Below are positions 27,401 to 51,156 of a stretch of 64,000 nt of DNA, piece after piece. Position numbers and translations under genes: made by a program. The notes under the pieces are model-generated. The model had not been told where the DNA came from. It searched no databases and saw only the letters and a list, made by a program, of their open reading frames with translations. Source of the DNA: Blasia pusilla. Taxonomy: Eukaryota. The stretch spans positions 24,118,001 through 24,182,000 of the forward strand of contig CM114271.1 of assembly GCA_050084515.1 (NCBI GenBank), read 5' to 3'. Position 1 is the stretch's first letter, and each line of letters begins with the position of its first letter.

Positions 27401-27706
27401 TACCCTGCACCCATGAAGATCCAACTAGTTGGGAATCCGAAATGGCAATCCGACAAGCAACAGGAATCCAACACGTCTTAGAGAAGAAAAGAAGCCTACG
27501 ACTGGTTTGAAAATACTAGGGGATCGAGCCAAAAGTGAAGAAGCCCGCCACAATGCCTCAAAAGTTGGTCTCATAGGGAAAGAGTCCGATCACTCAAGCA
27601 GCCAACCCGTCGGAATCCGACAACTTACGTGGAAATGGTTAAAAAGTTGCAGTGGTGAAAAAGTGAAAAGTTGCAACCCGTCGGAATCAGACGGGTTGCA
27701 AAATAA
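24421..27706. repeat. Tandemly duplicated segment at the probable outer part of the Mutator-like element
   Basis: 24421-24815 matches 26746-27150 (both begin GGGGCTGGTATT); 26190-26743 matches 27155-27706. Confidence 0.8.
25158..26166 (-). mobile_element. Solo LTR of the same chromovirus family
   Basis: TGTCGCG...CGCGACA termini, 5-bp TSD ATAAT (25153-25157, 26167-26171). Confidence 0.95.
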
Positions 27707-27875
27707 ACATTCTGAGTAGCTAGACGAACACAATCGACAAGTCCAAAAAAAATATTCAGTAAACTTTTACAAACATCATTATCGTTTGAAAAAATCTTGT
27801 CCTTTATTACATCCGAAGGAAGCTCGGAAATGTACATTTGATCTAGTCTATGATTTCTTCAGCCTTGTCATCTAC

Positions 27876-28871
27876 AAATTTACTCCTAACTCTCCTAGGT
27901 TCCTGTACAAAAGGAATGTCCTGGGATACAAATGGCTTCTCTGGCAGATTGTAGACGGGGATTGAAAATGTTGGCGAATTCGAGAGCCTTGGGACCCCGG
28001 GCTAGGTACACCATAACGGTCCCATGTAACCTGATTTGAGTCCCACCGCCTTCCTCGGCAGTTAATCTTGTACGCTCTGCAAGGTGACATCCATCCAATA
28101 TCAATATGTGCTCCGTCCTTGGAGACACCATCAACCCCTCAGCCAAGTAGTAGGAATCCAACACGTCTTATTTGATGACGAGGCAGAAGAATCATAGAAT
28201 AGATCAAATGTACACTTCGGAGCTTCCTTCGGATGTAATAAAGGACAAGATTTTTTTGAACGATGATGGTGTTTGTAAAAGTTTGTTGAATATCTTTTTT
28301 GGTCTTGTCGATTGTGATCGTTTATGTACTCTGACAATTCATATTGCAACCCGTCAGATTGCCACAGGTTGCAACTTTTCACTTTTAGACCACTGCACCT
28401 TTTTAACCACTTCCACGCAACCTGTCGGATTCCGACAGGTTGGCTGCGGGAGTGATCGGACTCTTTCCCTATTAGTCCAACTTTACAAGCATTATGGCGG
28501 GCTTCTTCACTTTGGCACCTTCCCCTAGTTTCGTCAAACAAGTCTTAGGCTTCCTCTCTTCTCTAAGACGTGTTGGAGAGACTTGCCACTTTTCCATGTG
28601 CCTTTGATACTCGCCCCTGAAAGGCCCACTAAGTCGAACACCAAGTCACCCAGCCTTGAGCAGAGCTCGATGAGCGTTTGCATCATCGCCGGCGACTTTT
28701 CCCTTCCTCCAAATAAGGGGGTACCATTTTGCATGTTAATTCCCAGGGGGGGGGATTGTATAAACTATCTAAGCAATACCCATCGGAGCATGGATCCACT
28801 GGATCGAGGATCTGAAACCCTTGGAAGTTGTGCTCGGGCCTTACAAAACAGTAGACAAAGGAGTGGTCCAT
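27876..28871 (-). pseudogene. 3' exons of the left-arm gene: C-terminal half of a beta-class N6A/N4C methyltransferase-like domain
   Basis: AG acceptor at 28873-28872, then MDHSFVYCFVRP; after a frameshift, GGREKSPAMMQTLIELCSRLGDLVFDLVGLSGAS (motif X/I-like); possible further exon GLMVSPRTEHILILD. Confidence 0.65.
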
Positions 28872-29124
28872 CTATAAAGAAGTAGGTTGGAAAAAATGTC
28901 AGCAACAAGAAAGAGCTAATTTTAGTATGCAACAACAAGAACGGTATACTATCACAATGGTGACACAATGTGCAACTCGTTCCCAAAGAACTTCGCTTAA
29001 TCCCAGAGAACTTAGTTATAGTCCTAACATTGGAGCAACGTGTCGGAGTCCGACGGGTTGTTTTACAAGTGTTAGTGAATTTTTTTGCCATGAGCAACCC
29101 GTCCGAAGGCCATAGATTGCTGGA

Positions 29125-29880
29125 TGTTGTGCGCATACACATCGCTACACAACATATATCGCTGTCACCGAACACACACACAAACACGCACGATCCCATG
29201 CTAACTCATGGCATCCAAAAAACAAGACAAGAAGTACCAAATATCTCCAATTAAAGTAAGATCCAATCTCTATCTACACAATCTCACACCATAGCTCTCA
29301 AAGGTGTGCACTCTCTCTCATGTCAAACCAAACCCACTCTCCTAATGAGAGGCTTGGGTTACACTCACAAGGCAAGGGACCATAGCTCCGCCGCCTTATG
29401 CCAAGAGGTTCAACAAAGAGAGAATGAGCTCTCAAGCTCTCTCTCCTTGGGATATATACCCCTCCCCTCTCCCAAGCTCTCTCCATGGTAACCTATTCTC
29501 ACAAGTCACCTCCTTGGCTCTTGACCTGATGTAGGAGGTCAAGGGCCATATACTAAAAATTAGAAAGTCGATCATATACTCAAAATGGTACTTACCTAAA
29601 ATAGCAAGTTCCTCAATATGGCTCCAAATGAGCCAAAACGAAGGGGAAACCTACTCTCGCAGGTTTCTCGGGGCCTCAGCAGGTCATCCTCGACCTCCTA
29701 GGCATGTCGTACACTACTCTTGAAGACGCTCTACTACATCTCACCGATCTATCCTGAAGGACGTGACAATTATCGTGCGCATATACATCGCTGTCACCGA
29801 ACACACACACAAACACGCACGATCCCATGCTAACTCATGGCATCCAAACAACGAGACAAGAAGTACCAAATATCTTCAAT
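29125..29880 (-). repeat. 3' repeat block Y-X-Y of copy 2: Y 29125-29251, X 29252-29768, spacer AT, Y 29771-29880
   Basis: The two Y copies match apart from a 17-bp insertion and a few substitutions; X matches 39927-40444; purine tract AGGGGGGCG (sense) at 29881-29889. Confidence 0.93.
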
Positions 29881-30065
29881 CGCCCCCCTAGTTGGTGGTT
29901 AGGTCCCTCTAACTCCAGATAGCCATCTATCCCTACCTACCATGACATACATCTCTCGGACGCTAAGAGCAAGAAGGCCGGGTGCTCATGTGGCCCCATC
30001 GTTAGTCGCCTTCCTGTCATCCATGTCAGAGAAAAAGTCGGGATCGAACCTACCTAGTATCTCCT

Positions 30066-30809
30066 CTATGTACATCTGGGACACATCCATCGTCCCCGAG
30101 GAACCCTAGTGAGAGGTGGTGTCAGACATGCCATATGCCAACCTCTCGAACAACCATCACAGACTAGCATTGTGGCCGCACCACGGGCAAAACCACACAA
30201 CATACAACGCAAGCCTGCATGAACTACTGCTAAGCTCGGATCCAATGTACTATCAATGTTAGGAAGGTGACATGGTGCAAAATTACGCACATGGTCCTTC
30301 CATACCATACCATCGCGTCCCTCCAGCAAGAGAACACCGGATGGCAAAACGTCACGCACTCTCGGGATAGTGCGCCCTGCAGTCACATCCAACGTCGTCG
30401 GTGCCGTCTGCTGCAAGTAGACATTATCTCCCTGATGAAACCTCCCGATAGTTGGTCGATAACCACCACCCCGAATAGTCGCATACCTCAACGTATCTCG
30501 ATGCTGCGCAATCGCCAAGTTCTCGAACGCCATGGGCATCACTCTCCGAAACAACTCAGCCCTCTGAGAACATGCTTGCACCCATACATCTGGGTCATCA
30601 AGGTCCAGCACCTCACCAGCATCTCGACGAATGGCCGCAGGTAAATGTGGCTGTCGGCCATAAAGTAGAAAGTACGGTGAAAAAGACGCTAAGGATGCAT
30701 GCCTGCTGAATCTGTATCCCATCGCCAACCATGGCAAGTGGAGGTCCCAATCTCCTAGGTGCCCTCTCTGCAAGCCATACTTGCGTAAACCCCTCTTCAT
30801 TGTTTGCAC
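30066..30809 (-). pseudogene. Integrase C-terminal part ending in a PHD finger (copy 2)
   Basis: CMLC..MLVCDGCSRGWHMACLTPPL..VPRGRWMCPRC, a C4HC3 pattern, in frame with the integrase. Confidence 0.93.
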
Positions 30810-33439
30810 AACTCTCTCCGCTAATCCATCCGCCTCAGGATGATCTCACGAAGTCGTGCGGTGGTCGATCAACGCGTGATCACACAAGGCTTGAAACTCA
30901 CTGCGAAACTGGGTACCCTGGTCTGTCAACACCTCAGCCAGTGCGCCATAATGACTCATCACTCTGTCAAGGAAGACATAAGCTACTCCCTCACTCGCTT
31001 TGTCAGGCAATGCAACCAACTCGATCCACTTCGAGAAGTGCTCGACCATCACCAACACATAACGATTGTGACGCTTCGTCAAAGGCAAAGGTCCTGCAAA
31101 ATCCAAACTCCATCTATACCCTAAGCCCATGATCGGTAATGGATGCAACTGTGGAGTCAGAGCATTGAACGATGCTCAGACCCGATCACACACCATGCAC
31201 CTGGCAACAAACTGCTGAACGTCAGTCTGCATGCCTCGCCACCAATACTGAATCTGGAGCAAGCTGTACGTCCGCTTCACCCCAAAGTGACCCAACTCCT
31301 CGTGGGCATGCTGTGCTAGTGGTGCTCTCTGCGAAGGATGCGGCACTACGCGTACTCTGCCATCCTCCCAAACCCTCAAAACATGTGTCCCCTCCCAACG
31401 GAACCGTCCGGCCCACTGTAGGATCCGATCCCGCTCTCTAGCATCCACGGTGCTCGCAACGCTGCCAGTACGAGGTACTCCAAGACTACTCCATCATCAT
31501 GAATATCTCTACCACTTGTCGTCTCCTCACTGGCCTCGGGATCCAAGGACTCTCCACTAGACCTGGCCATCAAAGTCTCCACACTCTGGCTCTCCATAGC
31601 CAACATGCCTAAATAGGTTGACGCGTGCCATCTTGGCACGGACTCCTTATCACTCTCTCCATGCCATCGAGCTCCAGTCGCATCTCGCTGACTCAGGCAT
31701 GGGTTACGACTCAACTCATCTGCATCTTGGTTGAGCATCCCAGGTCTATGTACCACCTGAAAATCATACTCCTGCAACAACAAAGCCCATCTCGCAAGCT
31801 TCCCTGTAAGCTTGTCGGACTCTATCAACCACTTCAGAGGTTGATGATCAGTGATGATGGTAAAGGGGTTGCCGAATAAGTAACACTTGAAATGCAGCCA
31901 AGCACTCACCCTCATACAAGCTGTACTTCGCCTCTGTAGCATTTTTCGAGCGGCTAGCATAAGCCACCACAAACTCTCTACCCTCATCATCATGTTGGGT
32001 GAGCACCGCTCCAAGCCCCAACATGCTCCAATCTGTGTGCAACTGGAAAGGATGCCCCCTAATCGGTCTCCTCAAGATGGGCGCACACGTCAACCTGTCC
32101 TTGAGCAACTAAAATGCTTGCTCCTGCTCATCCCCCCAGTGCCACTCCTGATCCACCTTGGTCAGCAAGGTCAGTTGCTTCGCAATCAAACTAAATCCCT
32201 TGACGTATCGCCGATAGAAGTTCGCCAATCCCATGAATGCGCGAACACGGCTCACATCTGTAGGGCGTGAAATTCGTGAGATAGCCTCTACCTTCATTTG
32301 CTGAACACCAAGGCCCCTTGGGTATATCGTATGACCCAAGTACTCAATCTGGTCGTAGGAGAACTTGCACTTGCCTGGATGTAGCTTCAGCCCATGTAAT
32401 TGCAATCGTCCAAACACCTCCTCTAGATGTCGCTCATGCTCCTCAACGATGGTGCTAAAGACTACAATGTCATTTATATAACACCTAGCAAAATCCAGAC
32501 CAACCAAGATCCTATCCATGACCCTCTGAAACTCAGACGGGGCGTTCTTTAACCCAAATGGTAAGAACCGCCATTGGTACAAATAATCCTTCCCGTGAGA
32601 ATTGATGCCCAAAAATACCGTCTTCTACATGTCCTCCAATCTGATAGGCAATTGATGGTATCCGACTCGCAAATCCAATGAACTGAAGACCTTTGCGTGA
32701 CCAATCGCATCAAAGATCTCCTTAGGGGTGGGCATGGCATACCTATCGAACTTCGTCTGCCAATTGATAGGTCGGTAATCCCCACACATCCGCCTATCCG
32801 TCCAGTTGCCATGCACATCCTTCTTGGCGGGCATGACAGTGGTAGATGCATACTCCCCATGCGACATCTCCACTAGTCTTGCTCTGACCAAGTCTTGGCT
32901 CCTACTCTGAATCAGAGCCCTCTCCATATCATTGTACCTGTAGGATCTTCGGAAGATCGGCGTATCACTTGATAACTCAATGCGGATCCCCGGTCCCTTC
33001 AGCGTACCCAAATCCTCCATGCTAAATGCAAAGCAGCTCCTATAACTCCTCAGGAACTGATGTATTTGGCACCGCTCTCCTCCTATCAACTTAGGGCCCA
33101 TATCTGGCTCCCAAGTCTCCATCGTGACTACGGTAGGACTCTCCGGCATGGGTATCGGTGGTTGCTATGGTGCAACCCCGTCTCGAACAACAACACTCGG
33201 CCGCTCTCTTACAGCCAACTGCAAACTCTGATCTCCTCCACGTGCAGTGCCCGAAACCACGCTCGATGTTGTGGCTATCATCTCCTTGCGTACGAGCAAA
33301 ACATCCCAAGAATTCCAAGGGTGTCTCTCCCGATCTCCTCGGGTCTCGCCCCCAGCCACTGCCTCCACCGTCTCGGTAGGCATGGGGCTCACCAACGCAA
33401 CCGTTGTGATCTGTCGTGATCTCATACGACGCTGCTCAC

Positions 33440-34400
33440 CCCCTCCCAAGCTGAGGATCCATGTCAAGCACTTCAGGTCCATCGCCTGACCCAAGACATG
33501 GCGTCGTGATGCCTCTGACACTGACTGTACTGCCGTCACTCCTCTGGGAAATCCCATCGCTCGCTTTCTCTCGTCGGCGTTGGGCTCCACCAACCGCTAA
33601 ACCTGGTCATCCCAAACCAAGCCAGGAACGGCCTCCTTGTATGCATAGGAAGCGGGAAAACTCACAAACGTGGGCAAGGCTACCCTCGGCCTGCCTACCC
33701 TGTTGACCATAGTCAACAGTGGTCGATCATCGTGCCTCACTTCCTGTGATCGACGACCTGGATCCCGAATGGAATCCACTAACAAATGGGAGGGGCGCTC
33801 CACTCTCGCATACGCCCTCCATAACACCGCATGGGGCACCAAGTTGGTCCACCATAGACGCGGGCGATGGGCTCTAGAACCTACACTCGCCGCATCCAAG
33901 AACACTGCTGGGCCGATCCAGGCACGCACCTGCTGAGCACTCGTCACCACCCGTGACCTAGAGTATCCTAAGATCGGTGCATACTCCAAAATGTAGGCTG
34001 GAGAACGAGACTGGTGCTCCTGCAAGTGCCGTAAGACCCTCAACATCTCCCAAAACAACCTGGACTGAGTGTCAGCCAACCCGCTGCCTGGTCCACTTGA
34101 TTGGCCCTGACATGACCAACCGGCAATGACCAAATCAATGGTCCCTACCCGCTCTAAGTCCTGCGCCCCCAACAACGAAATATCCCTCGATAGGGAACTC
34201 TGGTACCCATGTACTGCGAACGCAGACAATAAGTCGGGAAAACGTAGGCGGAATTGTGCCACATGTGGTAGTGAGACGCGCCTTGCAACATCATCACTCT
34301 CCACATATAGGTACTGTTGTACTCACACTCTTGCCTGCAAAACAACAGCTAACCCGGTGCTAATCCCTCCAAAGAGATCTAACACTCGAATACCCTCCCC
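33440..34400 (-). pseudogene. DNMT3-like C5 methyltransferase domain of copy 2
   Basis: VLDLFGG, IAGWSCQGQS, RLFWEMLR, ILEYA, SRAHRPRLWWTNL, ERKRAMGFP, RRHVLGQAMD; PC and ENV motifs altered in this copy. Confidence 0.9.
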
Positions 34401-35298
34401 CTGGATACACCACACAATGGGTGTGGTATCCAAGGGTGTCATCGTAGCACTCCGTGCTACCTCGGGTTCCTCAGGCCCGTCATGCTCCGGTGCAAACGCT
34501 TTGCTTCACGCGGTCTGCACGTGTTCATCTGCCAATCGTCGAAGCTCCTCAGTCGAGCCCCACATCGGTACCTCTCCTCCACGGAATGATGCACCTACCA
34601 TAACACTCCTCTCCATAGAAATGTCAGGAACGGGAGTATCCTCTGCATTGACATGTCCCTCAATCAAATCACTAGGCCAAGTGATGGCACTGCTAAATGT
34701 TGCTAAGGTCGCCATCTCTCCTGGTCGTTGCTCGATCACTGCACCTGTGAATCGAAGGGGTAATGAGCTAAGACGCCCATCTCTTGACTGCCATCCTGGT
34801 TTGTAGGATGGTGACTCCTCCTAGTAATCCAGGGAAAACCCCATCGGGTATAACACTGCTCCACCAACCAAGACGTCGTAGGACTGTGCATTAGTCACTA
34901 TCGCCTTGGCGCGCACCACGGACTCATATGTAGGATGTCCCAGGAGAATCTTCACCAGGACCTCTTTTCAGATGATATACTGTGTGGTACTCGCTCCACC
35001 CAAGGATGTCTGTATCCGGAATGGACAACGCTCCACATCAGCTCTCGTCAAGCCCAATCCTCTGAATGACGCTTTCCCCAACATGAGGGGTTGCGCTCCT
35101 GAATCCAACAAGACGCGCTACGGACTAAAATCTCTACCTCCAGGACTCACCAACTGGAAGACCTCTCCTCGGTTATCCAGCAACACAACACCAGGAGAAG
35201 CCATGGCACGCTCTATCGCGGGTCTAGCGGGCATCTCCGCCATTCTAGCAGCCGCAGCCTGCCATGAATCTGACGTGGATGGTTCGAGCATTCGCTCC

Positions 35299-36279
35299 TG
35301 TCGCGCCCCTACTCTCCTTGAACATCAATCTTTAGTATTGCGGAAGCGTGCGTTCAGTAGGTCGCAAACTCATCGCCGATCTGCACCCAAACACGCACTC
35401 TCGTTAGTTGGGTCTGGCCAACCGGCGTTCCAACCCACCGAGTCCTCAACTCGGCGTCTCATCAAGCTCAACCTTCCTTAGTTCCTAGCTTCCAAAACAT
35501 GGCAAGTCCTTCAAGACTTGGAACAGACTTCCTGGTTAGTCCAGGGATCTGAAACAACACTTGCGCGCCTAGCAATCCCAACTGTTCAAGGGTCCTCGGG
35601 TGAGTTCCGAACCGAGACTCAAGTAATTGAGTCGCGGGGTGGAATCCAAAAGGGATGTCTAAAATCGCCTCACTGGACTTGGTGCAGGTTTTCCAACCCA
35701 ACCCCCAAACTCGCGTTCCGTTCCATGCCCTTGAGCCGCCCCGCGACGCCCAAAGTGGGGTTTGGGTTCCAAGCACTCTCGGAGACCTTCCCTCTTACTA
35801 GTACTTCTGGGGTTCTCCAATAACCCCTCCCCTTTGGGAAAAGAGGTTCGGGCCCTTCATTGTGGCCCTCAACCCGACTCCACTTACAGTCGTTTTCGGG
35901 TTGTATCTCGGCCACTGCTTATGCGTTTGCAGCGATATTTGGTGCGTTTGGACCGGCTTTCCATAAGCTTTCCAACGCATCCTTATTTGCTCCAAATGCA
36001 TCTTGGCGCTAAAAGTTATGGCCATAAATACAGTCGGAAACTCTCAAACGCTAGTGGCGTTCCAAATCCGGATCTTCCCTTTGGCAACCCACTTCCTAGA
36101 CTCGACTTCTTTCAAGTCTCATTCCGCGTTTGGTCCAGGTTTCTCAGTCGCAACCATAACACCTGAAACGCGACTCCTCGTTCGCGTCTCGTCTCTTGTC
36201 TCCACTTTGAGACAACTCCAACGCGCAAACCATGTTCCATGTTCCGCTTGGCACTTGTTTGGTCATGAGGGTCGCGACA
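35299..36279 (-). mobile_element. Chromovirus solo LTR nested between gag and protease of copy 2
   Basis: TGTCGCG...CGCGACA termini, 5-bp TSD GCTCC (35294-35298, 36280-36284). Confidence 0.95.
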
Positions 36280-39200
36280 GCTCCAAGGGGAGGTCCATCA
36301 CCTCCTCTGCAATCACCTCTGTACGTGATGCAGGAACTCCAACTCCACGCTCACATAGCGACGCGGCCAGCCGAGAAGCCTTGACGGGCGTACCCCCCGA
36401 CGTCATAACATCGGAAGCAGAAAATAAAGGAGTGCGGTACACAACGGTGGCCGCCCCCAACAATGTGCTCGACACATGCCCCTCCTGAGCATCAACAATA
36501 GGAGTCGTTGCACTTGCTTCTCCCATCGCCCTCCGTGCCTGCACACCAACAACATCACCAACTCTCAAGGAACTTTGATCAGGACCCATCCATGGGGTCC
36601 TCATCGCTTCGGACAACGTGAAAGGCTGAGGAAGCCTAGTCTGTTTTCTGGCTTCCCCTCGATGTGGATCCAACTCTGTGGCTGCTCCATGCGTCACAAC
36701 TACGGCGGCCTCCATCTGGGCAACCCTGCACATCCAACCAGGATCCTCCAGATCTCTAACTGCTCCATATGATGTCGATACCACGGATCCGGCATCGGGT
36801 AACCTCAATGCCATAGCGGCAATCTGGTCATGCAGCTGCTATATCTGAGCAGCCATCCTAGCCTCACGTCCGGCCTCTCCCTCGGCGCGTATAGGTGGTG
36901 GTACTCTACCTCCTCCACGGGCAGCTCCACCACCCTGTCGGGCAACTCCAGCTCCTCGTCCCCCAACGAGACCACCTGGTGCACGATCTCTAGGCCCACC
37001 TGGATCGGCTACTCGCTCTGGTGCCCTCTCTGGCCCTCGGTCCGAACGTAACTCAGGATGCAAACTGAAACACTTGGCGCGTGTATGACCATACCTCTGA
37101 CAATAGTCACACTGATAACCTCCGGGTGCAACACCATCTCCTCCTCCATGCTGAGGCATACATCCATGACCCTGACGAGTGCAATGGCGCTGATGATGGG
37201 CTCCACCACATGACCAACAAGTAATAGTAGGCGGTTGTTGTTGAGCCGCATATGAAGGCGCAGGTCTCTGTGCCACGGGCTCCTGGTATCTTCCCTGAGC
37301 TCGTGGTGCCATAGTTGACCTATCTCGGAGTCCACGTTGCTGCACAGGTGGTGCAGCCAATCGCGACTACTCTCGCCGAGAACCCATGATGGCTTACGCT
37401 CTCCTCTGCCATGTTGCGCTCAATGTTCTCAGCGGTCCTAAAAACATCTCTCAACGTAGGGGAGGTGTTCATAAGAAGCACCCTCTCCCGCACCCGTGGC
37501 CGTAGGGTCTGGTCCAGCATCGCGTACCATGACTGGATAGCCCGAGCCTTTGTCACCCCCTGAGTGACGTTGATCAACCGGCGCAAGCGAGTGTAAGCCT
37601 CATGTAAACTCTCACCCGGGTGCCTCCGGAAGTTGTGGATGCTCCGCAACTTTTCCGTCCGTACTCCTTGGTAGCTCGCCCTCAACTCAACAAAGAACTC
37701 AACCACGGGGTTGAACCTGGGACAAACCCGACTAGACGGTGCAACTGCTCCAGTGAGAGTGACCCCTCCTTAAACATCACTAGTGGAAGAGGAAGTAGCC
37801 TACCTTGACTCCTACTCATCTGGGAATGGCTCCCTCCATGACACATAGTGTGGGTCGTAGTAGAGTCGCCATGCCTCAATCTCCTGGGCATATCTGTGGG
37901 AAAACTCATGGTAATCGTCCATGGGTGCCCCCTCTAAATGCTGGAACATACCGTTCCATGATGTAAACGGGTTGAACTCTCTAGAGTTCCTGGCCCGCTG
38001 GGAGTCGCACCAACTCTTAAACTCTGCTATGAAATCGTGCAACTCAATCGTACCTACTGCACCTGAAAACCTACGCGGTCCTCTACCCCGGTCGTCCATC
38101 TCGTACGCCCAACTGGTAGGACCACTCACAATGTGTGGCGATGTTCTCACAAATTCCTCTACACCCTCCCCCTCGTCTGACGATGACACAAAAGGAGGTC
38201 GAGGTGGTCCCTGAAGTGAAGACCCCCGGAACCTAACGCCACTCCGCGTAAAACCTCTAGAGCTACTCTCGGGTTCACCACCTCGCCTCTCAAAGTCCCG
38301 AACGGACGCCGTGATGACCCTCGTGCTCTTCTCACCTGATCACTCTTGCCTCGCAAGTAATCCCTCAACCACTCATCCCAAACATGCGGCACTCGATCTA
38401 CACTCTCCCTCCCCGAGACATGTAACGTGCGGCAATAAGCGGCGTGGTGAGGCAAATCGATCAAGCTATCATCTCATTGACAACCTACCCTCAACTCCGG
38501 ACATCCCACACAGGTCCATGTCCCCTAAATCACATACATAAATAATGCTCTCAGCATCCACACACCCAATATCCCCAAATAAACTACCCAAATCCGAGAA
38601 TCCCTCACACGTGCAGGGTAAAGGGCCAGAATGGGTAACATGAACACATGTCGATGTCGCTCCTCAGCAGCTGCGAATCTCGACCCCAACTCGGTCGTGG
38701 AGACAAATCCTCCAATCAGCAAGTCATACTCCTCCCGTACTAATGTTGCTCAAAACTCCTCGATAGACGGTGCAGTTCCAGTGGAATGGTACGGCGTTGC
38801 AGGCGGCACGCAACGGCTACGAACGGCACGGCCCTCGATGATGGGATGTGGCACTCGGCGGCATACCCTCCTTATTCAACAATAAACCCACACTCTGCTT
38901 CACAATGCCAGAGCGGCTCCGCGATCAAGATGGTGCGGTGCCGCCACGAGTGGCACGGCGCGGCAACCGGCGGCGCGTTGCGGCTACGGGCGTCACGGCA
39001 CGGTACCCGATCGTCGTTGAGCGGCTACGAATCACAACATAGCAGCAGGAAATCAAAACTCAAACAAAATAACAGGAGGTCATAAGCCATCACAGGTTGA
39101 TGACGGTGGCGGCCAAAACAAAGTACGTGATGGCGACGCAAGTCCGAGAATCAATGAATGTTGTGGAAGACCCTCCACTCCGTAATGGCGGCAATGGCAA

Positions 39201-39926
39201 CCAAGGATGGACAACGGACGGTGACGGTTGGCGGTTGATGGTGACGAACGAATGGTGACGGTGACGGTTGACCGTTGGTGGTGATGGTTGACCATCGACG
39301 GTGATGCATGACCGTTGACGGTTGACGGTGACTATGACGGCGACGGCCGCCGCCGGTGTGGCGGCTGGTTTAGGGTTTGCACAATTTAACCCTAAAAATT
39401 GCCTAGCAATGGCATTTTTGCAAGATTGACCATAACTTTTTGCTCGCAACTCCAAATTGTGCATTCTTTGTTGCACAACTTGCACAGCTTCACAATCTAC
39501 GCCAACATTAAAAAATATTTGGAATCAGACATTTGAGTAAAAACTGACGGGGACTTTCATAAAGCCCAATGTCTCTTTCTTCTACCCAACATTCGGCAGC
39601 GCTTTCGCGCTGATTCCTCCCAAAAAAAATGTAAAACCTATAAAAATGCAAATCAAGAAGCGACATGGTGCTCCCAAAAGCACCGGCATGGGGCAACCCT
39701 CCCCCATACTCAATCCCTATCAGAAATTGGGCAGCGCTTCCACACGCCACTCTTCCACACGAAAAATCGGCAAATGCAAAGAACAATCCAAGCAACCCTT
39801 GCTCCGATGAGCACTCCCATGAGCCGTTGAACGGGGAACACGGTCCGCAACCTGCAAAAATAGCGAGTGACCAGCGAGCTCCCCCATGAAGCTCTCTCAC
39901 TCTCTCATTCTCTCATTCTCTCTTTG

Positions 39927-40444
39927 TAAAGTAAGATCCAATCTCTCTCAACACAATCTCACACCGTAGCTCTCAAAGGTGTGCACTCTCTCTCATGTCA
40001 AACGAAACCCACTCTCCTAATGAGAGGCTTGGGTTACACTCACAAGGCAAGGTACCATAGCTCTGCTGCCTCATGCCAGGAGGTTCAACAAAGAGAGAAT
40101 GAGCTCTCAAGCTCTCTCTCCTTGGGATATATACCCCTCCCCTCTCCCAAGCTCCCTCCATGGTAACCTATTCTCCCAAGTCACCTCCTTGGCTCTTGAC
40201 CTGATGTAGGAGGTCAAGGGCCACTTACTAAAAATTAGAAAGTCCATCATATACTCAAAATGGTACTTACCTTAAAATAGCAAGTTTCTCAATATGGCTC
40301 CAAATGAGCCAAAACGAAGGGGAAACCTACTCTCTCAGGTTTCCCGGGGCCTCAGCAGGTCATCCTTGACCTCATACGCTTGTCCTCCACTACTCTTGAA
40401 GACGCTCTACTAGATCTCACCGATCTATCCTAAAGGACATGACA
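39927..40444 (-). repeat. 5' terminal repeat X of copy 2, containing a TATA box
   Basis: 518 bp matching 29252-29768; sense TATATAT at 40133-40127; no Y sequence adjacent. Confidence 0.93.
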
Positions 40445-40718
40445 TGGCTCAGAGCAGCCCATGGTTGGCTTAGAGCACCCCGTCGCATTCAGACGGGTTG
40501 CATCATTCCAAAAATACAAGGAAAAGCATAAGCACTTGCAACCCGTCGGAACCCGACGGGTTGCATTCACCCAATGGAGACTTGCGGTAAATTTGCAACC
40601 CGTCGCTTTCAGACGGATTGCACCACCGAAATCTTCAGCTCAGGCAATCCAACGGGTTGTATGCAGAGACGCAATCTGTCGGAGCAAGACAATTTGGATA
40701 TGGATTTAGAGCCCTTAC

Positions 40719-43700
40719 TCGGATTTTACTCGTCGCGGATTGGAGTGGGTACTCGTTCTTGATGACCCACGATTGCGCCGTCCTCCACTTCAACGACCTC
40801 TTGACGCACTGCACGTTGAAGAGCTTGTCCTCGCTCCCTCCAATCAAAACCAAGAAATAGCCCTTGTCATTGAGATAAGCGTCTGCAAAGGAAAACATGA
40901 GCGCGATGTGGTAATAAGAAAGAGGGACATTCCAGTCTGGGACACCGTCGGACGGATTCTCGTCCCACAAGCGCAACTTTGAGGGCAAATCAGCGACGAG
41001 GAGATCCATTGTCACCTACTCGACCTCCCCATGGACCATCCAGGGAGCGTGCCCGTAAGAAAGAGGGACATTCCAGTCTGGGACACCGTCGGACGGATTC
41101 TCGTCCCACAAGCGCAACCTCGAGGGCAAATCAGCGACGAGGAGATCCACCGCCACCTCCTCGACCTCCCCATGGACCATCCAGGGAGCGTGCCCGTTAC
41201 GTTGAAGCTTCTGTCCCAGCGTTGTCAATTTATCGATGGCGGGTGTTGACGCTTGGGAACTGAAACTTTTTAGCTCATCCAGAAGATTCGTGTAGTGAAT
41301 GATGACGCTTGTCCGGGTCGTTGTTTCTCTATGTCTTCCCAAGGATGATGGAGTGTATTCCACATCTTGGTCTGCTCCCTGGGACAAACATGGCGCCTCT
41401 CGCTTCCGCTTCTCCCGAGTCTACGGTCGGCTTGTTGGGGTCTTTATTACCTCAGACTCTAGTGGAGTTTTTTTGGCGGAGGACCTGGTCCGACCCTCTC
41501 TCCCCGCTTGCGCGGATGATTCCGCCTCTTGCCTTGAATTCTCAGCCTCTTTTTGGGAAGACTCGGCCTCAGAATTCTTCAATCCCCTCGCCTTGGCTTG
41601 GAGACCCACTATAGATTTGTCCTTGGCGGTGACGACCTTGCACACCAACTCCGCTGTCTCGAGGGCTTGCTCCTCCGCATCTCCTTCAAAAAAGTCTTCA
41701 AGCTGCACGAAATTGGGGATGTAGTCCCTACTTGCGGCCACTGCATCATAGAGCAGGCGTAGATTTTTCTCGGTTATGTCCTCAGGGTCGTTGAAGTCCA
41801 GCCAGATGGGGCAATTCTCCACCTCCCAGTCGAGAACATGCTTTGAGCCATCTCCATGTCGTACATGGAAAATGTCTCTCCATGAGGCGAAGAAGCCCAC
41901 AATTTGCAGGCTGCCCGTATTTTTTGCCACGTACCTGCATTCTTACAATGGACAATGTACCTGAACACCATGTGTTGGGCAGCTCTTAGTCGAGATGCAT
42001 CGGCCGCCTGCTCCTGAAGATCTCACTTTTTCTTTGCGAAATCCCTTTTCTTCGCCTCTATTTCTTCATCAAGGTCCGCCTGAGGGAGGATGTGATCCTT
42101 GAACATCGTCCTGAAGCCTGGGTTTTTTATGGGCTTGTCATGGATGTCATCCAGCAAAAGTTCAAAATCTTCAGCACTCTCCACGGTTGCTTCCTCCGGA
42201 AGTGGCTCTATTTTTTTCAGCTCCGCTTGGAGATCCACGAGCATGGACTTCTCGAGAAGCCGCAGAGCATCCCAGAATGACCATTCACAGAGCCAGTGGG
42301 AAATCACTGGATCAGAGACACCCGGAGGATGGTGTGCCACCCTCTTTTGGGCCTCTATGCCCTCGAGACTGATTTCCATAAGTCGGATTCTCCTAAATTC
42401 TGAAATTCCACACACGGCAAATTGATGGACGCAGTCGAGAGACACTTTCTCCCCAATCCGACCCTGCGGATCTTCATCCCTCTTCTACTGGGGCTTGATT
42501 ATCGCCTTCAGCTCCTTGTAGAAATCGGGGCCAAGTTCGGGGTTGAGAATGGCGATGTACCGTTGCATCTTGCTTGCAGTGTACTTTGTAGCTGCAGATA
42601 CTGCAGATTGGATGAACTTAGTACGCTCAGACACAGACACTTTCTCCCTCCGCTCCAGCTCCAATGAAGCGCTCTTCTTGGCGGCATGTATCTTCGACCA
42701 GCAAAGGATTGTCATGGCTGCATCTTGGGAAATAAATGTATTTGCCCAAGTCTTGTTTTTTTTATTTGAGCCCCCTTCGCCTGCATCTCATTTACAAGGG
42801 CGTCGCCCAAGAACCCCTTGTACTCTGCAGTGTACTTCGTAGCTACAGATATTGCAGCTTGGATGAACTTAGCACGCTCAGACACAGACACTTTCTCCCT
42901 CCGCTCCAGCTCCAATGAAGCGCTCTTCTTGGCGGCCTGTATCTTCGACCAGCAAAGGATTGTCACGGCTACATCTTGGGAAATAAATTTATTTGCCCAA
43001 GTCTTTTTTTTTATTTGAGCACCCTTTGCTAGCATCTCATTTACAAGGGCGTTGCCCCAAAACCCCTTGTACTCTTCCAGGTGCGTTGTTAGCACTTTAT
43101 TCACCCGATCGCAATCCTGGATCCAGTGGTGGATGACATTCCCCTCGGATACAATCCTGCACATCCAAACTCAATATAAGAAATTTTGCAAGCTACATGG
43201 GTTCCTGCAACTTGTCGAACTTCGACAGGTCGTCACACCTCATGTTCGGAATGGTAACTACGAGCTAAATTTTGCAACCCATCGGAGTTCGACGGATTGC
43301 ATTTAGATTTGTGATTGCCTGGTTTCAACCCATCGGAGTCCGATGGGTTGTCAGATAATATGTATTCAGAGAGTGGTCTCCGTAGGAAAAGTGAACATAT
43401 CAACCCGTCGGAGTCCGACAGGTTGCGCAATTTCAAGTAAAGCTGCAATTTGACGCCAAAAATCAAGCTCCCCTACTTTGATCACCTTCCTGTGCCAGCG
43501 AATGCAACCCGTCGGAGTCCGACGAGTTTCTTTCGGCCAAAAACATCCTAAAAACAACGGCCAGTCGAGCAACTCGTCAAACTCCAACGAGTTGCTTTCG
43601 GCCAAAAACATCCTAAAACAGCGGCCAGCCGAGCAACTCGTCCGACTACGACGAGTTGCTTTCGGCCAAAAACATCCTAAAAACAGCGGCCAGTCAAGCA

Positions 43701-45155
43701 ACTCGTCGGACTACGACGAGTTGCTTTCGGCCAAAAAAATCCTGAAAACAACGACTAGTCAAGCAACTTGTCGGACTCCGACGAGTTGATTTTGGCCAAA
43801 AATATCCTCAAAAATAGCGGTGAGTCAAGCAACTCGTCGGGCTTCGACGAGTTGCTTTAAGGCATACGATGATTTGTTACCACTAGTTAAACAACTCGTA
43901 GGAGTCCGACGGTTTGGAACAATCAAAATAAAGGAAGAGGAAACTTACGTGTTCATGGCATGCATGGCCATCTCCACCGTCGCCATGTGATGAGGGTATG
44001 GATGAAGCATGACTGCCTTCACGCAAAAATGCGCCTCCAATGAGTTTTGGCGCTCCTCTATAAACTGGGTCCACGCCATAAACCTGTGGTTTCCATCCCA
44101 GATGAAGAAATACAGGTTCCGCATCCAGCTGAATTCCGTCCCTTCAATCGCCCTTCTGAATTCCCGATCTCTCATCCTCCACAATGTGTCGAGCGCTTCC
44201 AAGTCCTCCTCTGTCACCAGCGCTTGGGTTCCATGTTCATTGTAAGGCTGAACATAGAACGGAGGGAAGTTGTTGACATAGGATGTTGTTATTGTCGATT
44301 GTTTCAGCTTCGCAATATCCTCGTCAGACTGAATTTTGCGGACGTACTCCATTGTCCACAATCCGCAAAGTGGAATTCTCGGGGCGTTCTGGCCCTCCAT
44401 CAGTGCCATCTGCTTTACCACCTGTCACAATGGAGACAAGGTCAATAAACTACACTGAATCGCCAATGAATTGCAACATGGGCCTTCACATAACTCAAAG
44501 AACAAAGATCATATCTTACCCGCTCGAAGATTGGGTCGGTGTCTTGGCCCGCCAATTGCTCTGGGACAGCAGCTGGCAAGTCCGCTGGAAACTCGTCAAT
44601 CTGATAGAGGTCAATTTCTTCCGCCGGGCTAAGAGACGATGAAGACTGCTCTCCTACTTCTTCAGAGATATCCACCATCTCCACGCTGGCAGTCCTCATG
44701 ACCTCATCGTCCGTCACTTGAACTTTGCCCATTTCCTCAACCGTTTTCTTATTGATTGTGTCCCCGGACTTCATCGGAGACATTTCTTGCATCTCAACTC
44801 TTTCGGTTGGACCGGCCGGACTTTCTTCAATGGCAATCGCTTTTTCCCTTTGAGCTTTTTCCAATTCTGCTCTCCTCACCAACGCGTCCAGACGCTGCTT
44901 TGCACACTTCTCCTCGGCGATCCTTTTCTTCAAGGCCTGCGACGCCTCAGCCTCTGCGTTCTATTTTTCAATCGCCTCCTTAACACGTTCTGCAAGAAGC
45001 TCCTGCCTATGCATCTCCGCTTCCATTTCGCGCTCCTCGATCTCTTGCTGCCTTATCTCATTGGCCAAACGAGGCCCTGGAGATGGTGACGTAGGAGTCT
45101 TGGACTTGGGAGTGAAGCTCCTTGCCTTGCTTGCTTGAGTTTTTTTCCTCGTCAT
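40719..45155 (-). pseudogene. Left-arm gene: coiled-coil N-terminus, ParB-like motif, N-terminal half of an amino-methyltransferase-like domain; exons about 45155-44520, 44421-43949, 43156-40719
   Basis: GT-AG introns at the same positions as in the right-arm copy; FFIWDGNHRFMAW; VDLLVADLPS..AYLNDKGYFLVL..SWVIK; frameshifts and internal duplications. Confidence 0.75.
43525..43900. repeat. Intronic minisatellite of ~61-bp units, each with a GCAACTCGTCGGANTCCGACGAGTTGC-type palindrome
   Basis: About six units of cggccaaaaacatcctaaaa..gcaactcgtc..gacgagttgcttt; inverted counterpart at 52670-52775 and 61788-61890. Confidence 0.85.
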
Positions 45156-45357
45156 TGTTCCCGAAAATACCACCTCCTCGACAACGAAATTACTTTATGT
45201 GCATGATGAGTCACCTCGATGAGTCACCTTGATGAGTCGCTCGAATCGTCTCATGATGAGTCACTGTGTAAAGCGCCCCTTGGTATCTGGTCCGCTACTG
45301 CCCTAAAGAGCAATCGAGATCGCGAAACGAAAAACCTGAAATGAGCAAACTCTAGCC

Positions 45358-45365
45358 TATTTATA
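45358..45365 (-). promoter_or_regulatory. TATA box of the left-arm gene
   Basis: TATAAATA about 200 bp upstream of the ATG, conserved in the right arm. Confidence 0.6.
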
Positions 45366-45971
45366 CTTTTCGAGCCGTTGGACTGACCGTCGTTCTGACA
45401 GCGACGTGTCGGCCGTTATGGAGGTCTGTACGTGAAAACCACCAACCCGACGGTCTCTGACCGGTTGGAGGCATCCATCCTAGCTGAACTATCCTGGCAA
45501 CCCTTCGGAGTCTGACAGGTTGGGCGCCTCCGCCGTCTTGGGGGAAGAACGCGAGGTACCGGCGCAACCGAGGTGAGGTAAGAAGAGAGGAAGAGAGGAA
45601 GAGAGGAGAGATTAGAGAGGAAACTACCTTCAACCGAAAGAGATACTTTTTTTAAAGAGAGTTTCCGTTGGGTTGAAGAGAGGAAACTTTTTGTGTGAAT
45701 TTTTTTGCACTTTTTTGCTCAGTTATTAAGCAGTCCCACATTTTGTTTTTCCTCTTCCATATTTTGGCAACCAACGTGAGTCTGACGAGTTGCAAATTGC
45801 ACAAAATTTAGAAAACTGAAAAATCAGTGGAATCATAAGTGTGGAACCAATCACTTTTTCCGTCCAAGGTCTGGAAAAAATCTATCATTTGCCCTGGGCA
45901 AAATAGAGTTGAAGCTAAAAGTGAAGGTTCTGGAAAAATGAAAGTATAATCTAAAACCTCATTTTGCATCC

Positions 45972-48900: not shown

Positions 48901-49935
48901 GATACTGTTGTGAGCTTGATCACTCCGGGCTTTGAACCCGGAGAGTTTCTGTAGACCTTGGCAACTTTCTTCGCCACATCCTCCTTGATGTGTCTCTGAA
49001 TTGCATCGGTCAAAGGATGAGTGTGGGAGCCAACATGAAGTGCCAGCCTTATGTACTCTAACGTGGAGCCCAAGTCGTGGACAATGAAAAATATTTATGC
49101 AGGACACGCTCCAACGCAGAAGGGGGATGCCTGACAATGAGGACATCGATGGCCTCCCGGCCGTATGGTGGCAGCGACCTCATATGGAGTTTTTGCATTC
49201 TTGGGGGGAATTACGACGTATTGACTCGCCCGTTGCGCTCTAGATACGGGCTTGCTGGACTTCTACACTCCAAGGCTCCAATGCATTGGCGGTGGGAGAC
49301 AATCCAAGGACCATATGGAATTGAAGCACTAGTCCGTTGAAGCCTGCACCATCGATGACAATTAGACTTTCTGTCCATACCCTTCAAGCGTCCTCCATCT
49401 TTCTTTTGAGCAAGAGCAGCAAGTGGAGGCAACTCAAAAATGGAATTACCTTCGTACGTGGGCGGCAGCTCGTCGACAAGAATGTGCTTGAACATTTTCA
49501 AGGCCATAGACGATAGCAAACTATTGCCTGATATCCGCAAGAGGAACGAGTAGGCAGACAGAGGGCCCGGTTGGTGTCCGACAGATCCATTGAGGTTCAC
49601 AACATCCGGAATGTCTTCAGGAAGTACAACATTCTTACGAGCGTGTGAAGTTGGAGTCGAAGCCGGATCTACTGAGCTAGGAGTTGAAACGTAGAGCTCG
49701 GTGCACTAGGAAATTCTCGACTGTCTACTTGGGAAACAGAGGAATTCAGGGGCAAGCCGTAAACTCTGTATTGACCATTTGCTAGAGGTAGGAGATTCCA
49801 TACTTTACGGTCTACAATCACTGGCTCGACTGTCTCACCTATTATGTCTTCCGTATCGTCCATCCTAACATCCTTGGATACAAAGATGGTTCCAATTTGG
49901 AGAAGAAATCGAACTGAGAGAAAATTTTCATCCAC
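45972..49935 (-). pseudogene. Mutator-like (MULE) transposase with GCM-like N-terminal region and C-terminal SWIM zinc finger
   Basis: HRQCIGALECRSP (GCM-like), HVGSHTHP, FMANNAQPGWIAIREV..DAFHWQQSV (MULE DDE-like), CSCDDF..PCKHIYYV (SWIM); frameshifts, introns and a 62-bp duplication near 47365-47490. Confidence 0.75.
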
Positions 49936-51050: not shown

Positions 51051-51148
51051 TCGAGTTGGTTTTTTTCACGTCCAGACTTCCATAACGGCCGGCACGTCGC
51101 CGTCGAAAGGACAATGCGACCCAACAGTCAGCCCAACGGCTCGAAAAG

Positions 51149-51156
51149 TATAAATA
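51149..51156 (+). promoter_or_regulatory. TATA box of the right-arm gene
   Basis: TATAAATA mirrored at 45358-45365. Confidence 0.6.

Follow-up and report, generated by a model that had tools for sequence, protein, structure and literature searches.

A pseudogenised, probably accessory gene of Blasia pusilla, likely descended from a ParB-like protein with a methyltransferase-derived domain

The window, a 64,000-nucleotide stretch of a Blasia pusilla contig, contains two inverted copies of one gene. The left copy (41106-45570, minus strand) is 79-91% identical to the right copy (50924-52656 plus 61787-64000, plus strand). The features are given below, beginning at the 5' end of the left copy.

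44964-45194, minus strand: 5' coding piece of the left copy, Lys/Glu-rich, spanning the ATG that the earlier note placed near 45155
44445-44960, minus strand: N-terminal region, acidic and rich in Lys, sharing the frame of the 5' coding piece with one stop between
43948-44424, minus strand: ParB-like exon (RIPLC..., FFIWDGNHRF), supported by its relatives and by hhalign to ParB_N
43504-43858, unstranded: 5.5 tandem units of 65 bp each, within the intron that immediately follows the ParB-like exon
41424-43170, minus strand: middle region, several ORF pieces, with homology to Riccia protein P0002 (residues 1-375)
40719-41250, minus strand: N-terminal half of the methylase-like domain (DLLVADLPS, AYLNDKGYFLVL, SWVIKNEYP)
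29125-40444, minus strand: nested LTR retrotransposon of 11.3 kb inside the intron, "copy 2" of the earlier note
28765-28871, minus strand: exon piece MDHSFVYCFVRP..., following an AG (28872-28873), in a frame unlike that of the next piece
28578-28764, minus strand: last recognisable exon piece, motif X-I-like EKSPAMMQTLIELCSRLGDLVFDLVGLSGAS
27467-28577, unstranded: inverted repeat cutting the last exon, with 406-nt arms at 27467-27872 and 28174-28577 (86%)
45570-50924, minus strand: centre between both copies, holding decayed ORFs, one of them with a SWIM zinc finger at 45975-46283
50924-52656, plus strand: 5' part of the right copy, with a broken ParB-like exon
52657-61786, minus strand: second nested LTR retrotransposon copy, at a different insertion site in the right copy
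61787-64000, plus strand: right copy from the middle region to DLLVADLPSGLHLW, where the window ends

The left copy is a pseudogene. Four in-frame stops interrupt it: 44961-44963, which terminates the 5' coding piece, 42485-42487 in the middle region, 41421-41423, and 41016-41018. The middle region also contains a tandem duplication of 252 bp (42575-43075). Another, of 142 bp (40915-41197), partly doubles the N-terminal half of the methylase-like domain and carries the stop at 41016-41018. Further on, VYCFVR and EKSP lie in separate frames, the two ORFs overlapping at 28683-28764 around a C9 run. With the four stops, the 142-bp duplication and the frameshift at the C9 run, the reading frame is not intact, contrary to the description in the earlier note. 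The peptides that it quoted are all found on the minus strand: WDGNHR in ORF 43948-44424, VDLLVADLPS and MDLLVADLPS with AYLNDKGYFLVL and SWVIKNEYPLQSATSKIR in ORFs 41019-41420 and 40638-41015, MDHSFVYCFVRP in ORF 28686-28871, and EKSPAMMQTLIELCSRLGDLVFDLVGLSGAS in ORF 28537-28764. The tail that it assigned to the gene, ...SLQHVLEKRGSLRLV, is instead sequence of the inverted repeat. This unrelated repeat, of which direct copies lie at 26192-26745 and 27155-27708, interrupts the last exon at 28577, and the gene sequence of the left copy ends there, truncated after motif I and missing methyltransferase motifs II-III.

The right copy is broken as well. It has a stop directly after FFI, at the position of the W in the left copy's WDGNHR, and reads R at the left copy's 42485 stop. 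Its arm at 63710-64000 reads DLLVADLPS too.

The retrotransposon within the intron has LTRs at 29252-29768 and 39927-40444 (94.8% identity), so that an LTR-flanked element does lie nested there, as had been proposed. It encodes an integrase with a PHD finger, and a sister copy at 1-8158 has a C5 DNA methylase ORF. The insertions in the left and right gene copies are independent. Around the insertion, a donor (CGA|GTAAGG, 40718) and an acceptor (TTTATAG|ATG, 28872) are present and join in phase 0. The GT-AG intron proposed in the earlier note would, without the nested element, be 526 bp long and not 523. The junctions 40718>28872 and 29124>40445 are absent among the 15 RNA-read joints listed, with 345 more existing. 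Three RNA runs give depths of 0 to 3.5 per bin across 40994-45600, and the gene body is near zero.

The gene lies in a high-copy repeat. In DNA run X12 its bins are covered 105-358x at a likeness of at least 90%, which corresponds to tens to hundreds of copies, and the differences among them are rich in transitions. Reads that are 99% alike or more make up only 461 of the 99,158 placed. That the repeat is a transposon had been claimed before, and two observations fit the claim: the copy number itself, and the remnant of a SWIM zinc finger (PF04434, 22.5 bits against a cut-off of 19.6) in an ORF that shares the left copy's strand and lies about 400 bp upstream of it. From this remnant alone the carrier may be MULE-like. 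A DDE/MULE domain, a terminal inverted repeat and a target-site duplication of the carrier were sought and none was found; the seven other centre ORFs tested against Pfam gave no family.

Another explanation for these copies is a multi-copy host gene, or a captured fragment, amplified by segmental duplication or by other elements, with the SWIM ORF unrelated to it. The missing DDE domain, terminal repeats and target-site duplication would be expected in that case, no adjoining transposase-like ORF was found beside the metagenome relatives, and two members are kept as ordinary gene models in the Riccia annotation. It is nevertheless improbable, given the number and transition-rich divergence of the copies, the decay of both window copies and the retrotransposons nested in them, the position and strand of the SWIM ORF, and the recurrence of related copies as near-identical paralogues in metagenome contigs.

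A further property of the element is a set of palindromes. Each unit of the 65-bp array contains a 27-bp palindrome of the GCAACTCGTCGGACTCCGACGAGTTGC type. Matches to it number 25, against 0 expected, and all are within the element.

A phmmer search with the N-terminal half of the methylase-like domain against 1.84 billion representatives returned two Riccia proteins, P0001 and P0002 (E 4e-9 and 7e-9), both of which terminate at the site of the left copy's intron. The ParB-like exon has three protein relatives (P0004-P0006) and 15 metagenome loci, and the last exon has six metagenome loci. Among the seven metagenome loci with at least 3.5 kb downstream of the ParB-like exon, six have a last-exon-like ORF 3.4-3.5 kb after it on the same strand. 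At three of these six (L015, L001 and L002) an ORF like the N-terminal half lies in between (E 0.007-0.011 among 4,418 ORFs). The order read from the window, with a ParB-like part followed by the two methylase-like parts, is therefore repeated in distant relatives.

The domain assignments have modest, consistent support from sequence comparison. Against a profile of 18 bacterial ParB_N domains, the ParB-like exon aligns with P 0.01 in hhalign, a score that none of 60 shuffles reaches, and the alignment places box I on IPLC..VR and GxRRxRA on DGNHRFxAW. In Pfam the exon matches DUF1015 alone (E 0.018). The earlier note proposed that the gene is prokaryote-derived; when the ParB-like profile was run over prokaryote genomes and viral contigs, no relative came up. 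The 5' coding piece gave no Pfam family at threshold. As a separate observation, P0006 lies closest, in its language-model features, to clusters whose members carry DUF3723 in 47% and 31% of cases (score 0.95, with 182 and 181 features shared); the HMM of that family, PF12520, has no match on P0004-P0006.

For the last exon, all three matches in PHROG are phage families annotated as "DNA methyltransferase" (E 0.0014, 0.032 and 0.11), and the best Pfam match is PF01555, below threshold at E 0.12 (positions 165-189 of 221). On a broad PF01555-type profile built from 43 sequences, hhalign places this exon at positions 202-228, which hold motifs X-I (KP..LL..II.ASS..GD.VLDPF), with P 0.0026 for the exon by itself and 0.00077 for a family profile; no shuffle out of 60 reaches the score. 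The N-terminal half is placed on positions 40-118 of the same profile, from motif IV onward with DLP over DPPY, at P 0.024, and here 3 of 60 shuffles do as well. hhalign gives the methylase-like segments low probabilities, 2% and 25%. In a search of 2,065 sequences with the broad HMM, the last exon comes fourth (E 2.6), and the N-terminal half, P0001 and P0002 have no score. A narrow YhdJ-type profile gives hhalign probabilities of 0.05-0.5%, and 1.4 bits in hmmsearch (rank 13 of 2,059 ORFs). No Pfam or NCBIfam cut-off is reached by a window ORF of this gene, nor by any relative. Thus the proposed joining of a ParB-like part to a beta-order methyltransferase-like part holds for the order and for the weak colinear profile matches, but not at the level of a Pfam threshold.

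Structural comparison points in the same direction for one relative. For residues 375-488 of Riccia P0002, all ten ESM Atlas structural rows among the matches listed are class-I methyltransferases. This part (114 residues) has a TM score of 0.63-0.65 to PF01555 clusters, a value that means little at this length, and the Atlas model of P0002 has a mean pLDDT of 0.33. AF2 models (pLDDT 44 and 42) are too poor to show a Rossmann fold, with no meaningful Foldseek match.

These scores invite the view that the motif matches are due to chance, in a lineage-specific repeat-borne ORF of unrelated fold. Every sequence-level score is under its family threshold, PDB sequences searched by profile and by single sequence return noise only, the AF2 models are uninformative, and 3 of 60 shuffles equal the score of the N-terminal half. 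Moreover, the PF01555 match is not an independent prediction, because the motifs had been picked by eye in the earlier note. The exons of the metagenome relatives have no methylase match in PHROG, and have unrelated matches at E about 0.02. A chance resemblance is still rather unlikely: each of three separate segments matches the family expected for it, at the expected and colinear position, two of them with a score that none of 60 shuffles reaches, the last exon's PHROG matches and the listed neighbours of the independent homologue P0002 are methyltransferases throughout, and the two-domain combination is known from phages and algal transposons.

If the domain does derive from a methyltransferase, the next consideration is its activity. 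Motif IV reads DLPS twice, DLPK and DLPT in the two Riccia proteins, and DILD, and never (D/S)PP(Y/F); the earlier caveat about DLPS in both arms extends to all members seen. No member seen keeps the second proline or the aromatic residue. Transfer of a methyl group to N6-A or N4-C is unlikely because this motif is DLP[S/K/T] or DILD in every member seen. It could be argued that the family contains active 6mA/4mC writers, with dead copies in the window, intact ones elsewhere and DLPS as an unusual working strand-4 motif. The colinear likeness from motif IV to X-I agrees with this, as do the motif-I-like GDLVFDLVGLSGAS, which retains the G-x-S-G pattern, the coverage of the last exon by RNA reads of a minority paralogue, and the "unusual variants" of the strand-4 motif that Iyer et al. 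describe in permuted clades of eukaryotes (PMC4738411). The altered motif IV, the loss of the glycine loop in the metagenome branch (ILDLFYATSE) and the failure of any family to reach a methylase threshold leave active writers with only a slim chance.

The gene is best explained as a pseudogenised accessory gene whose ancestor was probably a ParB-like protein with a permuted, methyltransferase-derived domain, likely non-catalytic and DNA-binding. The interval would then hold one of two inverted pseudogene copies of a gene that a high-copy DNA element of a plant-type genome carried as an accessory and not as its transposase. Its ancestral product would have been a long protein of three parts: a ParB/Srx-like domain at the N-terminus (IPLC...VR, FFIWDGNHRF), a middle region peculiar to the family and about 550 residues long, and at the C-terminus a domain that goes back to an amino-methyltransferase fold of the circularly permuted kind (beta-order, PF01555-like). 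Having presumably lost methyl transfer, this domain may have served as a DNA- or SAM-binding module, and the whole protein as a DNA-binding accessory factor, possibly acting on the 27-bp palindromes in the introns and flanks of the element.

An example of a catalytically degenerate permuted methyltransferase is METTL14 of the MT-A70 clade, a host gene conserved in single copy and described as acting with METTL3 on RNA (PMC4738411). As in the Blasia family, the fold is kept and the active-site motif disrupted, presumably for binding. Unlike METTL14, the Blasia family is a high-copy repeat, with no known partner.

In fungal Starship elements, DUF3723 (PF12520) is described as a conserved accessory gene (10.1101/2021.12.13.472469). 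It resembles the Blasia gene as a mobile-element accessory gene with a proposed DNA-binding role; the language-model likeness of P0006 is a lead only, and P0004-P0006 lack an HMM match.

Fusions of ParB_N with PF01555 occur in phages and plasmids, as in L161 (PF01555 E 5e-44, N-terminal ParB_N E 7e-4), and ParB-terminase loci have also been discussed (PMC4738411). They share the order of a ParB-like domain followed by a permuted amino-methylase. The phage fusions are 450-580 aa long, intron-less, have DPPY and score above Pfam thresholds, whereas the Blasia family has the long middle region, introns, DLPx and no threshold passed.

Closer parallels, as far as descriptions can be compared, come from algal transposons. 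In the Plavaka element of the red alga Bostrychia, PAG2 combines an N6-adenine methylase with SET and PAG3 combines ParB with a 2OG oxygenase, and homologues are reported in Chondrus Plavaka and Mutator elements (10.1101/2025.02.11.637652). As in Blasia, ParB-like and adenine-methylase-like modules appear as transposon accessory genes and inverted-repeat tandem arrays adjoin the ParB gene, the Blasia counterpart being the 65-bp array and its palindromes. The Mutator carriers match the MULE hint of the SWIM remnant. PAG2 and PAG3 are two proteins with other partner domains, whereas Blasia has one gene.

The 21.5-kb Sola1-1_Ec32 transposon of Ectocarpus, according to its description, encodes beside its transposase an accessory protein of 1104 aa with a ParB-like and an N4C/N6A DNA methyltransferase domain, proposed to bind and modify its own element (PMC12477816). 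The likeness lies in a long protein with the ParB-like domain N-terminal and the N4/N6-type methylase-like domain C-terminal. The carrier there is Sola1, and not one with a SWIM remnant hinting at MULE; its gene runs opposite to the transposase, whereas the left Blasia copy shares the strand of the SWIM ORF; and the Blasia copies are dead, with a degenerate motif IV. Accessory genes with ParB-like and N4C/N6A methylase domains are already published, as described for brown, red and green algal transposons (PMC12477816; 10.1101/2025.02.11.637652), and the idea as such is not new; the Blasia gene would be a new, land-plant-type and probably non-catalytic form of them.

By self-comparison, the window is repeat-rich eukaryotic DNA that holds one unit in two inverted copies, here called left and right. 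The two are 79-91% identical and are separated by 5.35 kb of unique sequence. Each is interrupted by a copy of an 11-kb LTR retrotransposon, at sites that differ between the two.

Copies of the unit and of the LTR retrotransposon
41106-45570, gene on the minus strand: left copy of the unit
50924-52656 and 61787-64000, gene on the plus strand: right copy of the unit
29125-40444, minus strand: LTR retrotransposon insertion in the left copy
52657-61786, minus strand: LTR retrotransposon insertion in the right copy
1-8158, minus strand: third copy of the LTR retrotransposon

The retrotransposon has features of its own. Its products include a C5 cytosine DNA methylase (PF00145, E 3e-10, ORF 3284-4096) and a PHD finger linked to the integrase (PF00628, E 5e-11, ORF 30069-30845). 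Transcription is strong, reaching about 100-170x in the RNA runs. Reads connect the LTR end at 40444 with the LTR start at 29125, and two extra letters stand between them (104+81 DNA reads, and 22-25 reads in each of three RNA runs). Tandem elements or circles have LTR-LTR junctions of this kind. With its C5 methylase the element is similar to retrotransposons of charophytes and dinoflagellates that bear a DNMT (PMC5890265).

In the left copy, the earlier note had described a spliced gene that joins a ParB-like motif to a methylase-like domain. Its main parts are the ParB-like exon (43948..44424, minus strand), which carries FFIWDGNHRF; the N-terminal half of the methylase-like part (40719..41250), with DLLVADLPS; and the last exon (28578-28871), with pieces resembling motifs X and I. 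All the quoted peptides were found on the minus strand. The donor CGA/GTAAGG at 40718 and the acceptor TTTATAG/ATG at 28872 exist and are in phase 0, and their join would link ...SATSKIR to MDHSFVYCFVRP. The intron proper, computed after removal of the nested element, would measure 526 bp rather than 523. The reads neither show nor exclude this splice: the 40718>28872 junction is absent among the 15 joints listed, 345 more falling outside that list, as is 29124>40445, the junction with the nested element removed. Joints 29064>40541 and 29064>40539 were considered as empty sites and rejected; they are read as cross-matches, because their shorter side is at most 25-27 letters long and ends in palindromes.

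The frame assembled for this gene did not prove intact. It is broken by stops, duplications and a frame change.

Features that break or cut the left-copy gene
44961, 42485, 41421 and 41016, minus strand: in-frame stops
Left copy, containing the stop at 41016: 142-bp tandem duplication repeating the DLLVADLPS segment
42575-43075, left copy: 252-bp duplication
27467-27872 versus 28174-28577: arms of the inverted repeat that cuts the last exon

The segments MDHSF...VYCFVR and ...EKSPAMMQTL... do not share a frame, and a C9 run lies where they overlap. The gene sequence of the last exon ends at 28577, where a 406-nt inverted repeat starts. With the exon cut there, the tail of the last ORF as first read is repeat sequence rather than gene, and the methylase part after motif I (motifs II-III) is therefore missing from the left copy. 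The unit of about 400-550 bp that makes up this hairpin-like repeat occurs in three copies (26192-26745, 27155-27708 and 28174-28577), two direct and one inverted.

The right copy has an arginine at the position of the left-copy stop 42485. It has a stop of its own directly after FFI, at the left copy's W of WDGNHR, and it exits the window (64000) at DLLVADLPSGLHLW. The observation of the gene is real, yet the copy that it describes is dead and truncated.

Reads of three RNA runs and of one DNA run, all with the same species label, were aligned at a likeness of at least 90%. In the DNA run the gene bins (40417-45600) are covered at 105-358x with both columns summed, and only 461 of 99,158 reads are at least 99% alike. 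High depth combined with so few close reads indicates that diverged copies of the unit number in the tens to hundreds. The differences in the DNA run over 28300-45600 are rich in transitions, with C>T at 542 places, G>A at 509 and any other class at no more than 349. Such dominance is the pattern expected for methylated, silenced repeats.

RNA depth is 0 to 3.5 per bin over 40994-45600 and 2.5-7.9x in the last-exon bin (28300-28876), where the orientation fits a minus-strand transcript. The variants carried by these last-exon RNA reads are rare in DNA: 28813 T>A occurs in 0 of 108 DNA reads, 28860 G>T in 4 of 145, and 28761 T>G in 2 of 88, compared with 28 of 29 RNA reads. The reads therefore come from a minority paralogue and not from the window copy. 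One such paralogue of the family, with variants across 28652-28860, seems to be transcribed.

Relatives from other genomes provide a second view of the gene. The 126-residue ORF of the N-terminal half was searched with phmmer against 1.84 billion representatives (E ≤0.001), and three matches were returned. Two of them (P0001 and P0002) come from Riccia fluitans and Riccia sorocarpa, where they are hypothetical proteins, with E 4e-9 and 7e-9. They read DLPK and DLPT at motif IV, have W.I.N..P in common, and terminate at the intron site of the window gene; P0002 additionally spans a homologue of that gene's middle region. The third match (P0003, E 9e-4) is a repetitive protein of 1,496 residues and was set aside as unrelated. 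A homologue search with P0002 returned P0002 alone.

The ParB-like ORF has three unnamed protein relatives of 169-241 aa (P0004-P0006), in which IPLC and FFIWDGNHRF are invariant, and 15 related metagenome loci. A search for longer homologous proteins found none, and the profile had no relative in prokaryote genomes and viral contigs. Unnamed proteins from metagenomes and assemblies contain members of the FFIWDGNHRF domain family.

Seven of the loci have at least 3.5 kb of downstream sequence. Six of these (L001, L002, L004, L005, L006 and L015, L011 being negative) carry a last-exon-like ORF (GGKERSLIMIQQLIEVCS..ILDLF) 3.4-3.5 kb downstream on the same strand. Between the two, L015, L001 and L002 have an ORF that resembles the N-terminal half (VDMVLIDILD...VPSWN...DNGC), at E 0.007-0.011 among 4,418 ORFs; L004 has an ORF of this kind too, scoring only E 19. 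Because it recurs in relatives, the order ParB-like exon, N-terminal half, last exon belongs to the family as such. Continuation of other copies into the last exon, on which the earlier note had let its reading depend, is thereby answered at the level of the family, though not for this genome. Tblastn of the window's centre ORFs against the metagenome loci gave no transposase link, and a tblastn search of the window with the exons downstream in the relatives gave no motif II-III exon.

The similarity to PF01555 expected for a methyltransferase of this class falls short of the threshold. PF01555 is the best Pfam match of the last exon (profile positions 165-189 of 221), at 12.8 bits and E 0.12 against a gathering cut-off of 26.7 bits. 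For the N-terminal half, P0001 and P0002 there is no match to PF01555, the Pfam scan of P0001 and P0002 gave nothing else, and no Pfam or NCBIfam model reaches its threshold. The last exon's only three PHROG matches are all 'DNA methyltransferase' (E 0.0014, 0.032 and 0.11). A comparable scan with ten related proteins had its best unrelated matches at E about 0.02.

A PF01555-type profile was made from 43 sequences, YhdJ relatives and viral methylases, and nine of its viral members were confirmed as PF01555 (E ≤1e-43). On this template hhalign places the family's N-terminal half at positions 40-118 (P 0.024), with iDLLi.DLP on vDLIFADPPY and a.alvnD.Gc on rvLK..GS. The last exon falls at 202-228 (P 0.00077 as a family, 0.0026 for the window sequence alone), with ErSl.miQqLIEvCS...g.ilDLf on QKPeaLL.RII.aSSnpGDlVLDPF. 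Column-shuffled controls reached the score in 3 of 60 cases for the N-terminal half and in 0 of 60 for the last exon. A permuted order, with motifs IV-VIII first and then X and I, is found in the hhalign placements and in the relatives' DNA, at weak scores. In the ESM Atlas, all ten structural matches listed for residues 375-488 of the Riccia protein P0002 are class-I methyltransferases, from a poor model; PF01555 clusters have TM 0.63-0.65, and feature matches to methyltransferase clusters lie at 0.91-0.93. The Atlas model of the whole Riccia protein has pLDDT 0.33.

Other searches gave little. The AF2 model of the N-terminal half is unusable (pLDDT 42) and has no Foldseek match in the PDB at E ≤0.001. 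A narrow YhdJ-type profile gave no signal, a broad HMM ranked the last exon only fourth of 2,065 sequences (E 2.6) and missed the N-terminal half, and PDB sequences searched with the last exon, and with profiles of the N-terminal half and of the last exon, yielded noise only. We count the placements, which are colinear and independent, as evidence of moderate weight that the C-terminal part of the family is a derived beta-order methyltransferase fold.

Such a fold would lack its catalytic motif. The caveat that motif IV reads DLPS in both arms is confirmed, and no member seen has (D/S)PP(Y/F/W) after strand 4. With DLPS in each window copy, DLPK and DLPT in Riccia and DILD in the metagenome relatives, five kinds of member agree that the catalytic motif is absent throughout. 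At the position of motif I the window reads FDLVGLSGAS, in an exon cut at 28577, and the relatives LDLFYATSE, compared with the SAM loop DPFxGSGTT.

For the other end of the gene, a likeness to ParB is plausible, not proven, from sequence comparison. PF02195 (ParB_N, cut-off 26.3 bits) has no match on the window ORF or on P0004-P0006, and a Pfam scan of these three proteins gave nothing. The window ORF matches DUF1015 alone (E 0.018), a family that we take to be tied to the ParB clan. Against a ParB_N profile of 18 domains from five bacterial genomes, hhalign scored 21.7 (P 0.01), a score reached by 0 of 60 shuffles, the highest being 17.7. IPLC..VR falls on box I (..qPR) and FFIWDGNHRF.AW on y.lvaG.rR.rA, the GxRRxRA arginine-patch helix; only one arginine is kept, and about 45 residues are inserted between the two boxes.

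Among Atlas features of P0006, DUF3723-bearing clusters are nearest (0.95), and a cluster with 11% ParB_N ranks 25th (0.91). The AF2 model of the exon has pLDDT 44, with no Foldseek match in the PDB at E ≤0.001, and a PDB sequence search with the ParB-like profile returned noise only. By language-model features, the family's nearest neighbours are DUF3723, a Starship accessory family, and a cnidarian cluster.

The centre between the two copies (45570-50924) contains degraded minus-strand ORFs, and both the centre and the unit itself bear on the nature of the carrier.

Features of the centre and of the palindromes
45975-46283, minus strand: SWIM zinc finger (PF04434, 22.5 bits against a cut-off of 19.6)
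26355-29059, 40477-45521, 47694, 50269-50996, 52662 and 61869-62152: sites of a 27-bp palindrome
43504-43858, immediately downstream of the ParB-like exon: tandem array, 5.5 units of 65 bp, holding 27-bp palindromes

The SWIM ORF is on the same strand as the left copy and stops about 400 bp upstream of it, which hints at a Mutator-like element. SWIM is also found outside MULEs. Seven other centre ORFs that were tested matched no family, and the DDE transposase core PF10551 is absent at E ≤0.1 from the 8 centre ORFs tested. Near the SWIM ORF, the ORF 48025-48414 looks transposase-like by eye and matched no family. The carrier hinted at would be Mutator-like, with the accessory gene in its long inverted arms. 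Mutator-like elements are marked by terminal inverted repeats and a target-site duplication of 9-11 bp; of the two copies, the right one runs beyond 64000 and the left one is cut at 28577.

The 27-bp palindrome (AACCCGTCGGANTCCGACGGGTT core, 12-bp stems and a 3-nt loop) occurs 25 times at up to 3 mismatches, where shuffling gives an expectation of 0. All occurrences lie within the ParB/methylase-like unit and its 3' flank, and 0 in the retrotransposon copies. The metagenome loci have no recurrent palindrome.

One reading, which we hold to be improbable, is that a land-plant lineage of large DNA transposons carries a partition-like module of its own. In this model, the module would be a fusion of a ParB-like protein with a methylase fold that no longer catalyses, and it would load on the 27-bp palindrome arrays in the element's introns and flanks, an analogue of parS. 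The loaded fusion would shield the element from the host silencing machinery or redirect that machinery. VANC-type factors are known as anti-silencing factors, and a device of this kind, if real, would be a protein-based one distinct from them. More generally, where mobile elements and host silencing are in conflict, transposon-encoded proteins that bind or mark the DNA of the element itself have been little explored.

With nearest protein relatives in liverworts, the family would show that the ParB-methylase module extends to the land-plant side, and the liverwort-related architecture would also show it persisting after loss of the catalytic motif. Persistence without that motif points to DNA binding, not methylation, as the selected function. 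As the window copies are dead, the value would not be in the locus itself but in the leads it gives: the family, and the palindrome arrays as putative binding sites.

Similar accessory genes have recently been published. ParB-methylase accessory genes are so far reported from brown, red and green algae (PMC12477816; 10.1101/2025.02.11.637652). A literature search for 'ParB-like' with bryophytes gave none among the matches listed, and no land-plant description was found. An example from brown algae is Sola1-1_Ec32 of Ectocarpus, with a 1104-aa protein that is ParB-like and an N4C/N6A methylase (PMC12477816). In the red alga Bostrychia, PAG2 combines an N6-adenine methylase with SET and PAG3 combines ParB with a 2OG oxygenase; arrays of inverted repeats adjoin the PAG3 gene, and homologues occur in Chondrus Plavaka and Mutator elements (10.1101/2025.02.11.637652). 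Iyer et al. describe eukaryotic ParB-linked Dam-type methylases and inactive METTL14-type domains (PMC4738411).

Compared with the algal genes, the window family has weakly supported ParB-like and methylase-like domains in a conserved order, in a high-copy repeat whose transposase is a SWIM remnant. The earlier interpretation, a DNA transposon carrying a methyltransferase-like gene, is partly right: the repeat is of transposon type and has a ParB-like/methylase-like accessory gene. The window gene goes with the recently published algal kind of ParB/methylase accessory genes. Set side by side from their descriptions, the two differ in that the window family has lost the catalytic motif family-wide.
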